64,000 bases of DNA, from positions 22,987-86,986 of the forward strand of contig DNFT01000032.1 in assembly GCA_003486385.1 (NCBI GenBank), in the 5' to 3' direction. This document shows, in pieces, positions 21,146 through 44,751 of the stretch. Below the pieces are notes generated by a model. That model was not told where the DNA came from. It ran no database searches and worked only from the letters and a program-made list of their open reading frames with translations. The first letter of the stretch is position 1; the number at the start of each line of letters is the position of its first letter. Source of the stretch: Eubacterium sp. (GTDB lineage: Bacteria; Bacillota; Clostridia; Lachnospirales; Lachnospiraceae). The position numbers and the translations under genes were made by a program.

Positions 21146-21451
21146 TTACATGTCCTTCTGCCTCATAATGTCCAGATGATGATTCCGCACCCAAAGGCAC
21201 ATATCAATTATTACTGCGGTCATGTTGATGAAATAAAACACAAAGCCAAGAATAAATATCCAGTCCAAAGCTATTCCCTGTGATACCTGCAGGCTTTTTC
21301 TTATAATTCCACAGATATAACCTATAAGAATAAAGACTTCAAACACAATGCTTTTTCCCTTAGCTGTTCTGGAAATATAAGATTTATGAATGGAGATAGG
21401 CCATGACAGTCCCCAGCAAAAAATCATAATTGCTTCTAAAAGATTAATCAT
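21146..21451 (-). CDS. Small (about 101 aa) 3-TM membrane protein
   Basis: Hydrophobic ORF. The start ATG is 9 nt downstream of the AGGGG inside repeated element A. The longer annotated ORF would be an artefact of translating that element. Confidence 0.45.
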   Translation of the reverse strand: MINLLEAIMIFCWGLSWPISIHKSYISRTAKGKSIVFEVFILIGYICGIIRKSLQVSQGIALDWIFILGFVFYFINMTAVIIDMCLWVRNHHLDIMRQKDM

Positions 21452-21530
21452 TGTTATACCCCTGCATACTGCAAGCATAGCTTGCAGTACTGCCACCAAT
21501 AAGTTGTTTGAAAGTTTCACTTTCAAACTT
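21452..21530 (-). promoter_or_regulatory. Structured leader/intergenic element, copy A. It contains the perfect palindrome TTTGAAAGT-GAA-ACTTTCAAA (21507-21527), a second hairpin, and the RBS.
   Basis: About 85% identical to 42365-42440. It begins 2 nt after the pcp stop codon. Confidence 0.5.
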
Positions 21531-22185
21531 ATACACCTGCCAGATAATCAATCATAATCTGGATTCCCTTCACCATATCATCAAGCTCCATCGAATAGCG
21601 GTTGTCAAGTTCCTTTTTACCCTGTAGCTGCTCCGGCAAAAACGGGACATGTACAAAGCCCGAAATCATATTCCCTGATTTTGAGGCAAGGTGTGCACCG
21701 ACGTACATCACATGATTGCACACATAGGTTCCGGCTGAATAGGAGGCGCGGCAGCCTATCCCTGCTTCATTCACTTTTCTTATCAAATCCCATACCGGCA
21801 AGGTCGAAAAATATGCATTTTCTCCTTCCGGGTATATTACACTATCCACCTTTTCAACTCCCGCAGAGTCCGCTAAAACTGCAGTTCCGTCCGAATACAT
21901 GCCGTTGTCCATATTGATGGCTACACGCTCAACATGGATATACGGCGAATTCCCGGCTTGTCCAAGTGACAAAATAATGTCCGGGCTTTCCTTTTTTACA
22001 AGCTCTTCCAAAATTCCGGTGGTACGGTCAAACTCAACCGGAAGAATCCGCTTAATAAGCTGTATACCCTCCGGTGCTGTTATTCTCTCAACTATAAGCT
22101 GGGATGGATTTAGTGTCCTGCCGTTGAATGCCTCGAAACCGGTCAGTAATATTTTTTTAGATGCTTTGATGTTTCCTTTTTCCAT
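21529..22185 (-). CDS. pcp: Pyrrolidone-carboxylate (pyroglutamyl) peptidase I
   Basis: GFEAF...GQAG...C..V Pcp motifs; 218 aa. Confidence 0.85.
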   Translation of the reverse strand: MEKGNIKASKKILLTGFEAFNGRTLNPSQLIVERITAPEGIQLIKRILPVEFDRTTGILEELVKKESPDIILSLGQAGNSPYIHVERVAINMDNGMYSDGTAVLADSAGVEKVDSVIYPEGENAYFSTLPVWDLIRKVNEAGIGCRASYSAGTYVCNHVMYVGAHLASKSGNMISGFVHVPFLPEQLQGKKELDNRYSMELDDMVKGIQIMIDYLAGV

Positions 22186-39685: not shown

Positions 39686-41226
39686 TTAATTTCTTTCCAT
39701 GTGCAAAACACCGGTAGCTATAGTCTCCTTAAATCGCACATCATGTTCCACGAAAAGCATCGTAGGCCGAAATGCCAGAAGCAGCTTCTCAATCTGCATT
39801 CTGGTATACACATCAATGTAATTTAACGGCTCATCCCAGATATAAAGGTGTGCCGGAGTAAGCAGGCTTGAAGCAATCAGCACCTTTTTCTTCTGGCCCT
39901 CAGAGTACAGCTCCATGTCTTTGTCAAACAGCACCCTCTCAAAATCAAGCTGGCGCAGGAGTGCTAACAGGAGTGTGTAATCCAATCTTTTCTCCCTGGC
40001 AAAATCTCTCAGGCTGCCCTTTAAATGCGAGGTATCCTGGCTGATATATGATATTATCAGGTTCTGCGGCACCTCCAGAATTCCTGTGGTTTTATAATCT
40101 GATGATACCGCTTCACCATCCTTATTACAAGCTAAAATTGCTTTAACCAGACTGGTTTTCCCACAGCCGTTTGCACCGTCAAGCGCAATCCTGTCGCCAT
40201 TCTTAAGCTCAAAGGTGACATTTCTTACCGCGTTAGCTGCTGCGTCACAGTACCTTAGGGAAAAGTCTGCTGTGCGCAGCAGCCGGTCTTTATGGTAACG
40301 AAGCGGCATAAGCTTCAAATCCTGCGTTTCCTCGATGTCCTTGAGCAGCCCTTCTTTTTCTTCTATTTCCCTCCTGATACGATTTTCATAGGTTTCCACA
40401 CGCTTCTGCATTTTCTTTGTCTTAGCTCCGATATATGCCCGTGCATCTTTTCTCCTGTCATGTTCCTTTACAGGGTCAAAGCCTATCTTGGTGCGCTCAC
40501 TACGTTCTGCCCACCTGCCGGCTCTGTCTGCCGCTGTTTCAAGCTTCTCTATCTCCCTTGCGTGTTTTTCATTCTCTGCCCTTGCATTCTTATCCGCCTT
40601 TTCCTTGTTCTCCCACCAGCTTGAAAAGTTCCCTGCCTGGACCTCTATGGTTGCCCTGTTTAATACAAGTACATGGTCTATACATGCGTCAAGTATATCC
40701 CTGTCATGCGATACAAGGATAAATCCTTTTTTTCTGTTAAGATAATTCTTCACTATCTGTCTCGCCTCATTGTCCAGATGATTAGTCGGCTCATCAATCA
40801 GAAGAAACTCATTCTCCCCGGAAAACAGTACCGCAAGCATCAGCTTAGTGCGCTCACCAAAGCTCAGTTGACCAAACGGTCTGTACAGAAGCTCCGGCGC
40901 AATTCCAAGCTGAGGAAGCTCACACAGAACCCTCCAGCTCTCCACATTCGGTTTCCAGCGCTCCATCAACTCATCGGCCGTATTGTTATAATCTTCCTCA
41001 GAAACCTTGTATGGAAAATAGTCAAATATCACACTGCTGTTTATCGTTCCGCTGTACTCATACTTTCCCGACAGAAGATTTAAAAATGTTGTTTTTCCCT
41101 TTCCGTTTCTCCCAATAAATCCCAGTTTCCAGCCTGTGTCAATTGAAAAGGATGTATCCGTAAAGACTTCATCAAAACTGCCCTCATAGGCAAAGGTCAA
41201 ATGCTCTACACTTATCTGTGCCATAA
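39686..41226 (-). CDS. ABC-F family ATPase (two NBDs joined by a roughly 85-aa charged linker; possibly ribosome-protection/ARE type)
   Basis: Two Walker A / signature / Walker B sets (GRNGKGKT...LIDEPTNHLD; GANGCGKT...IWDEPLNYID) and no TMD. True start is MAQISVEH, with AGGGAGG upstream. Confidence 0.85.
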
Positions 41227-41530
41227 AAACGCCTCCCTTTACCCTGCAAAAGCAACATAAAAGGTCTATCCTGCATACGCAAAATAGACCCGCAAAAATA
41301 ATCCTTCCGTATAAACAGCCCGATACAAAAGGAAAATGCGAATTGCGATAATCTAATTTAAGCGTACACAAAACAGCCTGCTATTGCAGGTTATAAAATC
41401 AATATGTGTCCTACTTAAATCAAACTATCTAATAATCATCTTCCCACCTTGCACCGACTGTGCTCTTTCTGTTTATTTGTCCTTTATTCACGGACATATT
41501 TATAATAGCATAGTTATGTTTCGTTTGCAA
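41227..41530 (-). promoter_or_regulatory. ABC-F promoter and roughly 300-nt leader, with a terminator-like attenuator hairpin at 41254-41291
   Basis: TTGCAA-N17-TATTAT promoter on the minus strand (41502-41530). Attenuator hairpin GGTCTAT-N14-ATAGACC followed by UUUUAUGUU sits about 30 nt before the RBS. Confidence 0.45.
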
Positions 41531-41641: not shown

Positions 41642-42364
41642 TTATACAACTATAGTTTTCTCATACCCAAGCTCACTCAAAATACCAGCAAGCTCATTCA
41701 TGTAGTCCGTTCCGGGTGTGAGCATGCGGGCATACTCCGCCCGGACTCCCATCGGCCTATAGGAAATTAACTTGAAATGAAAAGAATCCGGCTTGTACAA
41801 GTCGCGCATCATCTCTCCAATAGCCCTCACAGAATGCTTTCCGTCATAAAGCGACGGGCAGATTACGCATCTTATCTCCTCAAGCCTGCCGATTGTAGCT
41901 AACAGTCTGGCATTGGCAATCACAGTTTCATTGCCTGTCCCGGTAATTTTCCTGTGGATATCGCTGTCATAAGCCTTTATGTCCAGAAGGACGCCATCCG
42001 TCACGTCAAGTAAATCCTGCTTGCCGGCAAAATCAATGGTACCATTGGTATCTATCATAGTGCTCAGCCCCAGCTTTTTGGCCTTTGTGAACAGCTCGGT
42101 CAAAAAATCGTACTGGAGCATACATTCACCGCCGGAGACAGTAATACCTCTCACAAAAGGAATCTGCTTTTTGACCTGTTCAAGCACCTCATCGGAGGAC
42201 ATCTCTGTCACAGTTGTAATATTTTTATCGCCGTACTTATCCCTTGTCTCAGGATTGTGACAATACAGACAATTGATATTGCAGCCTTGCAAAAAGATTG
42301 CTGTTCTGTTTCCGGGTCCGTCAACCGATGAAAAAGGAATAATTTTATTAACTCGTGCTCTCAT
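41642..42364 (-). CDS. yjjW: Glycyl-radical enzyme activating protein (YjjW family, radical SAM)
   Basis: CNINCLYCHN radical-SAM motif, paired with a YjjI-family gene. Start chosen at MRARVNK, 6 nt after the AGGGG in element B. Confidence 0.8.
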   Translation of the reverse strand: MRARVNKIIPFSSVDGPGNRTAIFLQGCNINCLYCHNPETRDKYGDKNITTVTEMSSDEVLEQVKKQIPFVRGITVSGGECMLQYDFLTELFTKAKKLGLSTMIDTNGTIDFAGKQDLLDVTDGVLLDIKAYDSDIHRKITGTGNETVIANARLLATIGRLEEIRCVICPSLYDGKHSVRAIGEMMRDLYKPDSFHFKLISYRPMGVRAEYARMLTPGTDYMNELAGILSELGYEKTIVV

Positions 42365-42440
42365 GTTATACCCCTGCATACAGCAGGCACTGCTTGCTGT
42401 ATTGCCAATAATAAGTAGTTTGAAAGTTTCACTTTCAAAT
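42365..42440 (-). promoter_or_regulatory. Structured leader/intergenic element, copy B (palindrome TTTGAAAGT-GAA-ACTTTCAAA at 42419-42439)
   Basis: About 85% identical to 21452-21530. It starts 2 nt after the yjjI stop codon and ends at the yjjW RBS/ATG. Confidence 0.5.
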
Positions 42441-42441
42441 T

Positions 42442-43986
42442 TTATCTAACCTTACGCTCCAATATTCTGCCATTCTTCTTTGCACCCGTGCCAAGCTGGG
42501 TGGTGTTCTGCAGTACAGCATTGCCCTGCTCATACTTCTCAATCTCAGATCTCTTTACCAGATATCCTGTGATTCTGATTACATCGCTGTCCGATGAGTA
42601 AAATGAAAGGTATCGGATGTCCTTTTGCCATGAGCCCTTAATAATGTCAAGCACATACTCCGGATTCTTATGTACTGTCAAATCCACCGGGAAAATATCT
42701 CCTGTACCCGAAACAAAATACTTGTGGAAATTGCTGATTACATTGAGATGGTCTACAAGCTCCTCCGGCTCCTCACCAATCGGAATACGTGTCCCCGGTG
42801 CAATCCCCTTGTCCTCCGCAATACCAACCTGAGCATGAAGCAGGAAATGGCTGCCTGTACCCTCACAATATTTATTAAAATGATTATTATTAAATTCATT
42901 TATGATATCCATAATCTCAACACCAAGCTGTGTAGCGGCATCCGAATGACCGAATCTGTCATCCTTACCCTCTTTAGTCATAAGGACATTGACCGCATCC
43001 GCAAGACCGACAAGTCCAAACATTCCGGTGAAGCTGTCCCTATGAATAAGCCCCTCTTTTGCAAGGAAATTCGATTCAAAAAAGCCTGACTGCTCTACCT
43101 CAAACGCAATACGTGCATCCATATATTTTGCCATGACATCCATAACATAAGGAAGCTGGTTGTTTTTAAAATCTTCAATTCCTGCAGAGCGCTCGGCAAT
43201 ATGTCCCAGAATCAGACGGCAGAGCGTGTAAGCACCACCACCAAGCAGCAAGCCATTATAACAGCTTGCAATGACGTAATTCTCACCCAGTTCATTTTTG
43301 AACATCCGGTGATTTGCAAAACTAGGCTTGGCTGTCTTAAGCGCACACTTGACACAGGCAAGTGCAAAATCATCATCTGTAATCTCCGGGTCATACTTCA
43401 TTGAAATATTTGGAATTGCATTTTCAAGTTCAGCTTGAACCTCCAAAATCAGATAGCCGGCTCTGGTAGCCTTCGGTCCAATATCCGCATGTGAAAACGA
43501 ATCAAGCACCGTACGGTCAACATTTGTAAAGAAAAGCTTAAGGTGCTTCTTAACCGTCGCATCATCCATATCCGTGATAAACGGCTCTAAAAGATAGTCA
43601 AGCTGTCCTAAATAAACCGGATAATTTGTAATGCTAGGCACATGCTTATATATAATCAACAGGTCATTAAGTGCCTCAAAAAAATCTGTTGGCGGTTCAA
43701 GCTGCAAAAATTCAGAGCCATTCTTAAAAAACTTCTCATAGTCCGGGATGATATATCTAGGTCTCATCGGTGCATGACCTTCAAAAAGATCACAAATACA
43801 ACGGTGTTCATCATCACAGTTAAGCAAATCGTCCAGTCCCTCCGGAACGTCAAGTACCTCAAGCATACCATCCGCCGCATTGGCAAGATTGGTGAGCTTC
43901 TGCTCATGCGTAAGCGCCTTATTTGTAATAATACCAAGAATATTTTCTCTTGTTTTTTCAACTCTTTCCATTGATATAGGTCTCAT
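42442..43986 (-). CDS. yjjI: YjjI-family (DUF3029) putative glycine radical enzyme
   Basis: About 515 aa and collinear with a radical-SAM activase, as in E. coli yjjI-yjjW. Start chosen at MRPIS (GGAG upstream). Confidence 0.7.
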   Translation of the reverse strand: MRPISMERVEKTRENILGIITNKALTHEQKLTNLANAADGMLEVLDVPEGLDDLLNCDDEHRCICDLFEGHAPMRPRYIIPDYEKFFKNGSEFLQLEPPTDFFEALNDLLIIYKHVPSITNYPVYLGQLDYLLEPFITDMDDATVKKHLKLFFTNVDRTVLDSFSHADIGPKATRAGYLILEVQAELENAIPNISMKYDPEITDDDFALACVKCALKTAKPSFANHRMFKNELGENYVIASCYNGLLLGGGAYTLCRLILGHIAERSAGIEDFKNNQLPYVMDVMAKYMDARIAFEVEQSGFFESNFLAKEGLIHRDSFTGMFGLVGLADAVNVLMTKEGKDDRFGHSDAATQLGVEIMDIINEFNNNHFNKYCEGTGSHFLLHAQVGIAEDKGIAPGTRIPIGEEPEELVDHLNVISNFHKYFVSGTGDIFPVDLTVHKNPEYVLDIIKGSWQKDIRYLSFYSSDSDVIRITGYLVKRSEIEKYEQGNAVLQNTTQLGTGAKKNGRILERKVR

Positions 43987-44028
43987 AATTGTCTCCATTT
44001 GTTTCATAATATTTATGTAATAATCTAA

Positions 44029-44226
44029 TTAATTATTTGCTTCCGGTTTCGGATTCCAATGATATCTGTCATACATGAAATGTCCATATAACAAATCTTG
44101 TATCAGATGTAGATAATAACCAAAATACAAATCATCAACTTTCAATAAATTTCCAAATTTTTCCTTATATTCTGTTAAATTATATGAACGCTTCCCCGTA
44201 TCACTTCTTATATTGTCCGGCATCAA
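44029..44226 (-). pseudogene. Short (65 aa) ORF, possibly the remnant of the HEPN-type partner of the adjacent nucleotidyltransferase
   Basis: Begins with TTG, lacks a clear RBS, and is about half the normal HEPN size. Sits immediately 3' of an MNT-domain gene. Confidence 0.3.
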
Positions 44227-44285
44227 GCAAAATTCTTGCAGAGCGTAATTTTTCTTCTGACATATTTAATCTATAAGACGAAAGC

Positions 44286-44624
44286 TCATCCAACCTTAAT
44301 TCCCTCCTTCTCGATATTCATATAATAAGGTAATATCTCCCTATATTTTTCAAATTCATCAAAAGGAACTACTGTCGGTGATACAACTACATCATTCTCA
44401 AGCCCAATATCCGCTGATATATCCCATACTATTTTCAGTTTTTTCTGTAAGTCCAATCTATTTCCCTTTACAATGGCAACAATATCTACATCTGACTGGT
44501 CTGTCTCTTCGTTTCGTGCATAAGAACCATAAAGGAGAATCTCTACTATATCATCACCATATATGTTGCGATATACGTCTACAAGTTGCGATGTTATGTC
44601 TTTTAATTGTGCTCTGGTACACAT
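44286..44624 (-). CDS. Minimal nucleotidyltransferase (MNT) domain protein (antitoxin-like partner of HEPN/MNT modules)
   Basis: LYGSYARNEETDQSDVDIVAIV: GS...D.D nucleotidyltransferase motif. Confidence 0.75.
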   Translation of the reverse strand: MCTRAQLKDITSQLVDVYRNIYGDDIVEILLYGSYARNEETDQSDVDIVAIVKGNRLDLQKKLKIVWDISADIGLENDVVVSPTVVPFDEFEKYREILPYYMNIEKEGIKVG

Positions 44625-44751
44625 ACAGTCAATAATCTCCTTTCTATAAATGTTTCTTTAAATATATCATTTACAGCGTAAATTTACAATATCTATATAA
44701 GCTCACAATCCATTATAACCATATATGAACACCATTATTTATACCCTTTTT

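Follow-up and report, generated by a model that had tools for sequence, protein, structure and literature searches.

REP2 (CREN) of Neisseria and a similar inverted repeat of Borrelia plasmids are described as interspersed repeats without terminal inverted repeats, and both lie directly 5′ of unrelated ORFs, in the orientation of the ORF (Delihas 2011, PMC3184786). The start-associated sequence (SAS) of Cluster K mycobacteriophages is a conserved block containing a Shine–Dalgarno (SD) sequence, placed 3–7 bp ahead of the start codon in many genes that are unrelated to one another; half of the blocks stand behind an inverted repeat whose spacer varies (ESAS). SAS occurs in a single orientation, its function is unknown and its authors found no support for RNA pairing (PMC3203893). 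MIRU repeats are 40–100 bp long, lie between the genes of operons, are oriented with translation and are transcribed within the polycistron. REP/BIME units are built on an imperfect palindrome of 20–40 nt that starts with GTAG, and copies flank a RAYT gene. The palindrome-associated elements of the IS200/IS605 type (HUH, single-strand transposition) carry similar subterminal hairpins at both ends, which are recognised by one TnpA, and the integron attC site is a single long imperfect hairpin with R″/L″/L′/R′ boxes and a GTTRRRY core.

The window analysed here, a stretch of 64,000 nt from a Eubacterium sp. contig, contains two closely similar gene spacers, one between pcp and a 101-aa ORF and the other between yjjI and yjjW. 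Both are very probably copies of a small non-autonomous mobile interspersed repeat that supplies a replacement ribosome-binding site (RBS). The family is spread through Lachnospiraceae-like gut Clostridia, with a unit of 75 nt here and of 80–100 nt in other subfamilies; literature searches returned no description of this repeat family in Lachnospiraceae.

A 22-nt segment, TTTGAAAGTGAAACTTTCAAAC, has exact matches at 21506–21527 and 42418–42439 of the window, and a 17-nt segment, GTATGCAGGGGTATAAC, at 21453–21469 and 42365–42381; no match is expected by chance for either, the former value being taken from shuffles. Both copies lie on the minus strand and are 87% identical, differing at 10 of 77 aligned positions, which bears out the two similar minus-strand copies reported by the initial annotation in the pcp and yjjI–yjjW spacers. 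The 77 nt that it gave as the length of the element is the length of the spacers, and the repeated unit itself measures 75 nt (21454–21528 and 42366–42440). Similarly, the onset that it placed exactly 2 nt after the stop codon is correct for yjjI, and for pcp the TTTG onset lies 1 nt past the stop codon. Its other anatomical statements, on perfect 9-bp palindrome arms, a partly compensatory second stem, the identity of the flanking genes, and an AGGGG ribosome-binding site with start context provided by the element, agree with the structure described below.

Each unit consists, in order, of hairpin 1, a short linker, a second hairpin and a single-stranded tail, GCAGGGGTATAA, which contains the SD and a spacer. 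Copy 1 is the full unit GTTTGAAAGT...GCAGGGGTATAA and separates the stop codon of pcp from the 101-aa ORF. Judged from sequence and fold, its hairpin 1 spans 21506–21528 (GTTTGAAAGT / GAA / ACTTTCAAAC); the fold and pair counts place hairpin 2 at 21464–21493 (GCA-G-TACTGCAAGC / TAT / GCTTGCAGTA-TGC). The tail (21454–21463), AGGGG followed by a TATAA spacer, is unpaired in the predicted fold and precedes the ATG at 21449–21451 as its putative SD, from which the ORF for a 101-aa protein with three membrane helices (21146–21451, minus strand) would be translated. Copy 2, ATTTGAAAGT...GCAGGGGTATAA, constitutes the intercistronic region between a yjjI-type glycyl-radical enzyme gene on its 5′ side (42442–44007, minus strand) and a yjjW-type radical-SAM activase gene on its 3′ side (41642–42364, minus strand). 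It comprises a hairpin 1 with 9-bp arms in which the first G is replaced by A (42418–42439), a hairpin 2 with one A·C mismatch (GCA-A-TACAGCAAGC / AGT / GCCTGCTGTA-TGC, 42376–42405) and the tail AGGGG plus TATAA (42366–42375), which is the putative yjjW ribosome-binding site (ATG at 42362–42364). An SD-like AAGG is found at the 3′ end of yjjI, 12 nt ahead of copy 2. Pfam searches identified the flanking genes as Peptidase_C15 (pcp, pyroglutamyl peptidase), YjjI-like and radical-SAM activase genes, and gave no match for the 101-aa ORF.

Both copies are predicted to fold as two hairpins with AGGGG left unpaired. Hairpin 1 has perfect arms of 9–10 bp and a GAA loop in each. Between the two copies, hairpin 2 shows one fully compensated pair (U-A to A-U) in addition to the A·C mismatch of copy 2. 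The mismatch is not present in the orthologue from a sister species (L016) and is a recent mutation, since that orthologue has a perfect stem; the hypothesis of a plus-strand RNA, in which this A·C would be read as G·U, was rejected. No terminator-like site was found within the element.

Among known systems, REP2, MIRU and SAS/ESAS come nearest to the element. In architecture, sequences aside, it resembles REP2/CREN and the Borrelia repeat, in which an RBS and an ATG come after two internal stem-loops (PMC3184786); no likeness of sequence to REP2 would be expected because the phyla differ. REP2 as described there is about twice as long and has its own promoter, whereas a consensus scan of the sense strand of both copies gave no sigma-70-type promoter match. 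Many of the present copies are, unlike REP2, intercistronic, and the insertion polymorphism and target mimicry described below were not found reported for REP2 in the parts of PMC3184786 considered here. MIRU shares with the family its filled and empty sites and its variable tandem copies, which here have a 75-nt period and one- versus two-copy alleles. In MIRU, translation is maintained by small ORFs overlapping the flanking stop and start codons, whereas here a new SD is introduced; the reading frame through the unit is not conserved, as copy 1 has it in phase but copy 2 and other subfamilies do not. In addition, MIRU has tetranucleotide direct repeats, in contrast to the present family, in which the element's own tail is repeated. 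A palindrome and an SD block ahead of start codons are also what SAS/ESAS has, but SAS/ESAS is phage-encoded, is composed of 13 bp plus 17-bp inverted repeats and is kept per gene family, and its mobility has not been demonstrated.

Resemblance to REP/BIME and to the IS200/IS605 palindrome-associated elements lies in the lack of terminal inverted repeats, hairpins near the ends, orientation-specific placement, insertion beside a short motif without clear duplication, and possible roles in intercistronic mRNA stability. However, the element has no GTAG head, and no RAYT gene occurs in the 8-kb flanks of the copies. Unlike the IS200/IS605 type, it has two hairpins of unrelated sequence, the first of them directly at the 5′ junction, a right-hand junction that varies from copy to copy, and no TnpA gene within the 8-kb flanks. 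Like a MITE, the element is short, non-coding and multi-copy, with filled and empty sites, but comparison of its 5′ end (GTTTGAAAGTG...) with the reverse-complemented 3′ end (TTATACCCCTGC...) revealed no terminal inverted repeat, and neither a parent insertion sequence with the same ends nor a recurrent protein was found in the 8-kb flanks. An integron attC site was rejected on account of the two separate hairpins, the junction GTTTGAA with T as its fourth base, and an empty site without GTT; a dif-like reading was rejected on anatomy. The element does not show the features by which MITEs, REP/RAYT, elements derived from IS200/IS605 and attC sites are defined.

The hairpin 1 pattern TTTGAAAGTNNNACTTTCAAA was scanned against one genome per species and found in many Lachnospiraceae and Clostridia MAGs, with several matches in each. 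After the hairpin, the Clostridia matches have the linker, second hairpin and GCAGGGGTATAA tail that are seen in the window; other MAGs have different 3′ modules, which nevertheless close with an SD positioned a few bases ahead of an ATG. Built on 18 copies, a covariance model detected only the two known copies within the 64-kb window; in the loci fetched from MAG CAKRJT01 it found at least 14, some of them with a decayed hairpin 1. A metagenome scan added at least 119 further stretches carrying the element, mostly from human gut. Tandem arrays with a period of 75 nt are present, one locus has 1-copy and 2-copy alleles across metagenome samples, and many copies directly follow either a full copy or a 5′-truncated one. 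The initial annotation had named the existence of only these two copies as the outcome that would speak against a real element; with many copies in related genomes and metagenomes, this is not the case. Thirteen conspecific contigs, covering 41 kb, contain no copy beyond the two known. No element match was obtained in IMG/VR and PLSDB. Two GenBank records labelled 'Bacteriophage sp.', L266 (MT836421) and L267 (MT839524), carry the element. A phage or plasmid vehicle was rejected, these two matches being regarded as bacterial chromosomal DNA; L266 at least is bacterial DNA in a virome, because it encodes an ABC transporter and histidine kinases.

The sequence of the hairpin 1 arms, (AA)GTTTGAAAGT/ACTTTCAAAC(TT), is kept across subfamilies over 10–12 bp, and the 3-nt loop is free (GAA, AAA, AAT, ATT, TTT or CTG). 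Every subfamily is predicted to fold into hairpin 1, a second structured domain and a free SD, with z-scores of −2.3 to −5.4. Hairpin 2 is swapped for different stable stems in other subfamilies, and within the window subfamily it contains two compensated pairs. One subfamily has a compensated G-C to A-T pair in the hairpin 1 arms. The hairpin 1 pattern is compatible both with a structural role, as single-stranded DNA or RNA, and with recognition by a protein.

At the pcp site, filled and empty alleles could be aligned. The site is empty in 10 conspecific loci (L118–L121 and L131–L136) and in two sister lineages, L264 and L265, whose protein identities are 97% and 86%; all of these read GCAGGTGTATAA|CAATG. 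It is filled in four independent assemblies, namely the window, L122, L202 and L214; the possibility that L122 represents a variant pcp allele was rejected, as it has the same insertion with sequencing errors. The empty allele is CTGGCAGGTGTATAA|CAATGATT, where the bar marks the place of the 75-nt unit; in it the pcp stop codon and the ATG are 2 nt apart, and the empty-allele contigs encode an identical 101-aa protein. Because two sister lineages are also empty, the empty site is considered ancestral, and copy 1 is evidently a derived, recent insertion; these outgroups also argue against reading the empty site as a deletion. The 12 nt before copy 1, GCAGGTGTATAA (21529–21540, minus strand), form the end of pcp including its stop codon and, in the filled/empty alignment, correspond to the target motif and an orphaned resident SD. 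They agree with the element tail GCAGGGGTATAA at 11 of 12 positions, and GTATAA, which is also the constant element tail, stands on both sides of copy 1. The covariance score of copy 1 (107.5 bits) equals that of copies in other MAGs, and recent activity of the family is suggested by the fact that copy 1 is identical to copies elsewhere in such MAGs.

From a TTG where hairpin 1 begins, an open frame extends across the element and continues, in phase, as the 101-aa ORF (21146–21526, minus strand). Public gene calls lengthen the 101-aa protein through the element to 124 aa, which is an annotation artefact of the insertion. The hypothesis that this signal-peptide-like TTG frame, in phase in copy 1, is coding was rejected because copy 2 and other subfamilies preserve neither the phase nor the peptide.

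All seven conspecific loci contain copy 2, as do the sister species L016 and L049, whose genomes are ∼92% identical in DNA to the window species. Among these three genomes the 80-nt yjjI–yjjW spacer has 3–4 differences, as against a divergence of 18–26% at fourfold-degenerate sites of yjjI and yjjW (binomial P≈5e-6). All the differences fall in hairpin 2 or adjoin the ATG; hairpin 1 is unchanged at 21 of 21 positions across the three species, and the intergenic region past yjjW is unalignable among the same genomes. The contrast between spacer and fourfold sites suggests that copy 2 is under purifying selection. Homogenisation by gene conversion is unlikely because copy 2 retains lineage-specific differences from the family consensus, and purifying selection appears the simpler reading. 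Copy 2 is thus, as far as these alignments indicate, an old insertion that is fixed and now a constrained part of the yjjI–yjjW operon.

Copies of the family are oriented with the downstream gene and lie directly 3′ of a resident SD or of the upstream stop codon, the resident SD often being inside the end of the upstream cistron. In about two thirds of the copies an ATG that opens an ORF of >100 aa follows within the next 1–3 nt. An SD-like 4-mer occurs within 13 nt upstream in 20 of 32 independent copies versus a background of 17% (P=8.5e-9). This excess of upstream SDs together with the downstream ATG indicates that the element lands between a resident SD and its start codon. By this reading of the junctions, the old SD is orphaned and the putative element SD takes over. 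The genes that follow are unrelated and include those for the membrane ORF, the radical-SAM activase, dusB, alr, a dnaC-like protein, an aminoglycoside acetyltransferase and a response regulator. At L061 a solo tail serves as the putative RBS of a response-regulator gene, with acetyltransferase and AAA ATPase genes between a full copy and this tail, and at L020 two full units directly follow the same solo tail.

Insertion follows ...TATAA or ...AAA(G) in one orientation, with a variable right-hand junction. A second filled/empty pair is provided by L199, which is filled, and L156, L208, L216 and L227, which are empty. The L199 insertion brings together an SD-like stretch, the unit and a further ∼80 nt that contain an ORF of 19 codons, and both of its junctions lie within SD-like microhomology. 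Hybrid SDs are found at the right-hand junction of L024 and L098; L199 and L266 have additional donor-like sequence, short ORFs included, with an out-of-frame ATG in L266. GGTGTAA stands on both sides of the copy in L091; other copies share 3–5 nt only. For the dusB and dnaC-like copies the sister lineages have unrelated spacers at the corresponding place, and the boundaries are unreadable. Because the right-hand junction varies, recombination fits better than a precise transposase cut, and some 'empty' alleles could therefore be deletions between SD-like repeats. In an all-vs-all ORF comparison of the 8-kb flanks no protein recurs in the element-bearing loci; no transposase, RAYT or TnpA gene lies near any copy within these flanks, and the neighbours tested are ordinary genes. 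Some metagenome contigs, L180, L230 and L212 among them, link the 5′ flank of one locus, such as the pcp end, through a copy to the 3′ flank of a different locus. These contigs reflect either real recombination between copies or assembly chimeras and, being possible chimeras, were left out of the evidence.

As judged from its sequence contexts, the element is duplicative or mobile. Target choice would depend on likeness to the element's own tail, because the junction lies inside the shared GTATAA, the pcp target matches the tail at all but one of 12 positions and many copies follow a full or partial copy. Were targeting to work by tail likeness, the family would spread by one of two mechanisms. 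A trans-acting nuclease or recombinase, either rolling-circle/HUH-like or site-specific, might recognise one motif shared by the 3′ end of the donor and the target. Alternatively, short-homology template switching or gene conversion might proceed out of a tail–unit–tail array. The junctions fit either a trans-acting enzyme or template switching/gene conversion, and neither is preferred. Once inserted, the element would be read through within the mRNA, where its hairpins may stabilise or insulate the downstream cistron, and hairpin 1 may be bound by a conserved protein.

The initial annotation had offered three readings, of which a miniature intergenic mobile repeat carrying its own translation signals is the one upheld by the many copies, the filled and empty alleles and the tandem arrays. 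A cis-regulatory RNA (riboswitch, attenuator or protein-binding leader), with the copies forming a regulon and not reflecting mobility, appears quite improbable. Rfam searches of the whole window, of the element at a relaxed threshold and of 10 related loci yielded no family overlapping any copy, so that the known motif for which such a check had been proposed did not emerge at gathering or relaxed thresholds. A riboswitch or attenuator would further be at odds with the lack of a terminator, an SD that is unpaired in the predicted folds and not sequestered, and downstream genes that are functionally unrelated, with no link to a single gene family and no expression platform. The stable folds (z-scores down to −5.4), the few compensated pairs and the co-orientation of copies with genes whose start codons they adjoin do speak for an RNA, as does the selection on copy 2, which covers hairpin 1 and the linker, both dispensable for SD function; linker-to-loop pairing is permitted in the CAMJPM01, RUG11784 and L017 subfamilies, as seen by eye from the sequences. 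Yet insertion polymorphism and tandem and partial units go against a regulon without mobility, as do the near-identity of copies, inside one genome as well as across genomes, and the wholesale exchange of hairpin 2 from one subfamily to another. A regulatory RNA can be entertained in addition to mobility, as a mobile regulatory cassette, and not instead of it.

The remaining suggestion, an operator fused to an RBS, would make hairpin 1 a double-stranded DNA site for a dimeric transcription factor or recombinase-type protein and the rest of the unit a passenger, with the family labelling the genes to which this protein binds. The part of it that stands is the pattern of hairpin 1: the arm sequence is kept in all subfamilies around a 3-bp centre that is free and even flipped (AAA/TTT, AAT/ATT), the hairpin is combined with quite different 3′ modules and occasionally occurs almost alone (L085 and L172 type), and all 21 of its positions are unchanged in the fixed copy across three species. 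The insertion polymorphism, the tandem units and the conserved tail are left unexplained, however, no promoter was found in or beside the element, and many copies lie inside operons right after a stop codon. The compensated G-C to A-T change in the arms of one subfamily favours pairing over a base-specific reading, and no candidate protein was found, all of which renders an operator very improbable. Chance resemblance, a local duplication in one genome or an assembly artefact would be in keeping with just two copies in the 64-kb window, but is barely credible given that no chance matches are expected, that the unit is present in dozens of independent assemblies and loci, which refutes all three, and that the filled pcp allele occurs in four of these assemblies.

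The mobile RBS-supplying repeat, preferred on these grounds, would be harmless inside translation-initiation regions because it brings a new SD, a solution that has so far been described just loosely, for REP2 and MIRU. The interest of the family lies in this placement, in the mimicry between tail and target, and in the selection on a fixed copy; the apparent targeting of tail mimics and the selection on the old copy hint at an enzyme or a host function not recognised so far. For annotation, the element creates false N-terminal extensions, as in the 124-aa call, and also misleads searches for RNA motifs. For genome evolution, tandem expansion often takes place at copies of the family, and rearrangement possibly does too, in Clostridia that abound in the human gut; the family also provides strain-level presence/absence markers. 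A further and rather unlikely reading is that of a self-targeting 'RBS cassette', in which hairpin 1 is the handle for a conserved protein that would wire unrelated genes into one post-transcriptional circuit. Such a cassette would find RBSs through their likeness to its 3′ tail, insert between SD and start codon and replace the SD, and the protein would be either a new kind of transposase/recombinase or an RNA/DNA-binding regulator. If this were true, the purifying selection on the yjjI–yjjW copy would be the signature of a domesticated function.

Several observations were made beside the element. The TTTGAAAGTNNNACTTTCAAA scan also picked up unrelated palindromes in Bacteroidota, of which TGTAATTTGAAAGTTAAACTTTCAAATTACA, a longer one, has 9-bp arms in common with hairpin 1. 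TGTAATTTGAAAGTTAAACTTTCAAATTACA was found at L004, L008, L014, L015, L019, L023, L083, L093 and L113 and in other Bacteroidota; it recurs in Pedobacter, Algoriphagus and Chitinophaga, in many cases accompanied by another, partial copy ∼30 nt off, and sits 5′ of genes whose products start with MIHRTLE or MIERL. It resembles a distinct system of operator or repeat type. A second repeat of ∼50 nt, ...GTCAAAAC-ATGCTGATTTAATGTACGAGTGTATAA..., occurs in the same gut metagenome genomes (L164, L171, L180–L184, L192, L234, L242, L253 and L256), sometimes abutting the element tail; it is not found in the window, and no transposase lies beside the one copy examined.

The interval between rlmH and yjjI (window 44029–44750) contains an MNT nucleotidyltransferase gene (44286–44624), alone or accompanied by a HEPN partner. 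The MNT block is absent from L016 and L049 and the HEPN gene is variably present among conspecific contigs, a variation that suggests a strain-variable insertion of the toxin–antitoxin type. One conspecific contig (L127) lacks the ABC-F ATPase gene that lies downstream of yjjW in the window (39686–41371) and has two tiny ORFs instead. Very short ORFs of 5–19 codons, in place of a long gene, follow the copies in L045 (4986–5018), L060, L065, L067, L116 and L199, one of them encoding the Cys-rich MKNRCGCCGL; these ORFs may be small genes, or remnants of the beginnings of donor genes that travelled with the unit. In L060, Rfam identified an S10 ribosomal-protein leader at 839–919 and a TwoAYGGAY RNA (RF01731) at 2329–2492, the latter ∼600 nt downstream of a tandem element pair.
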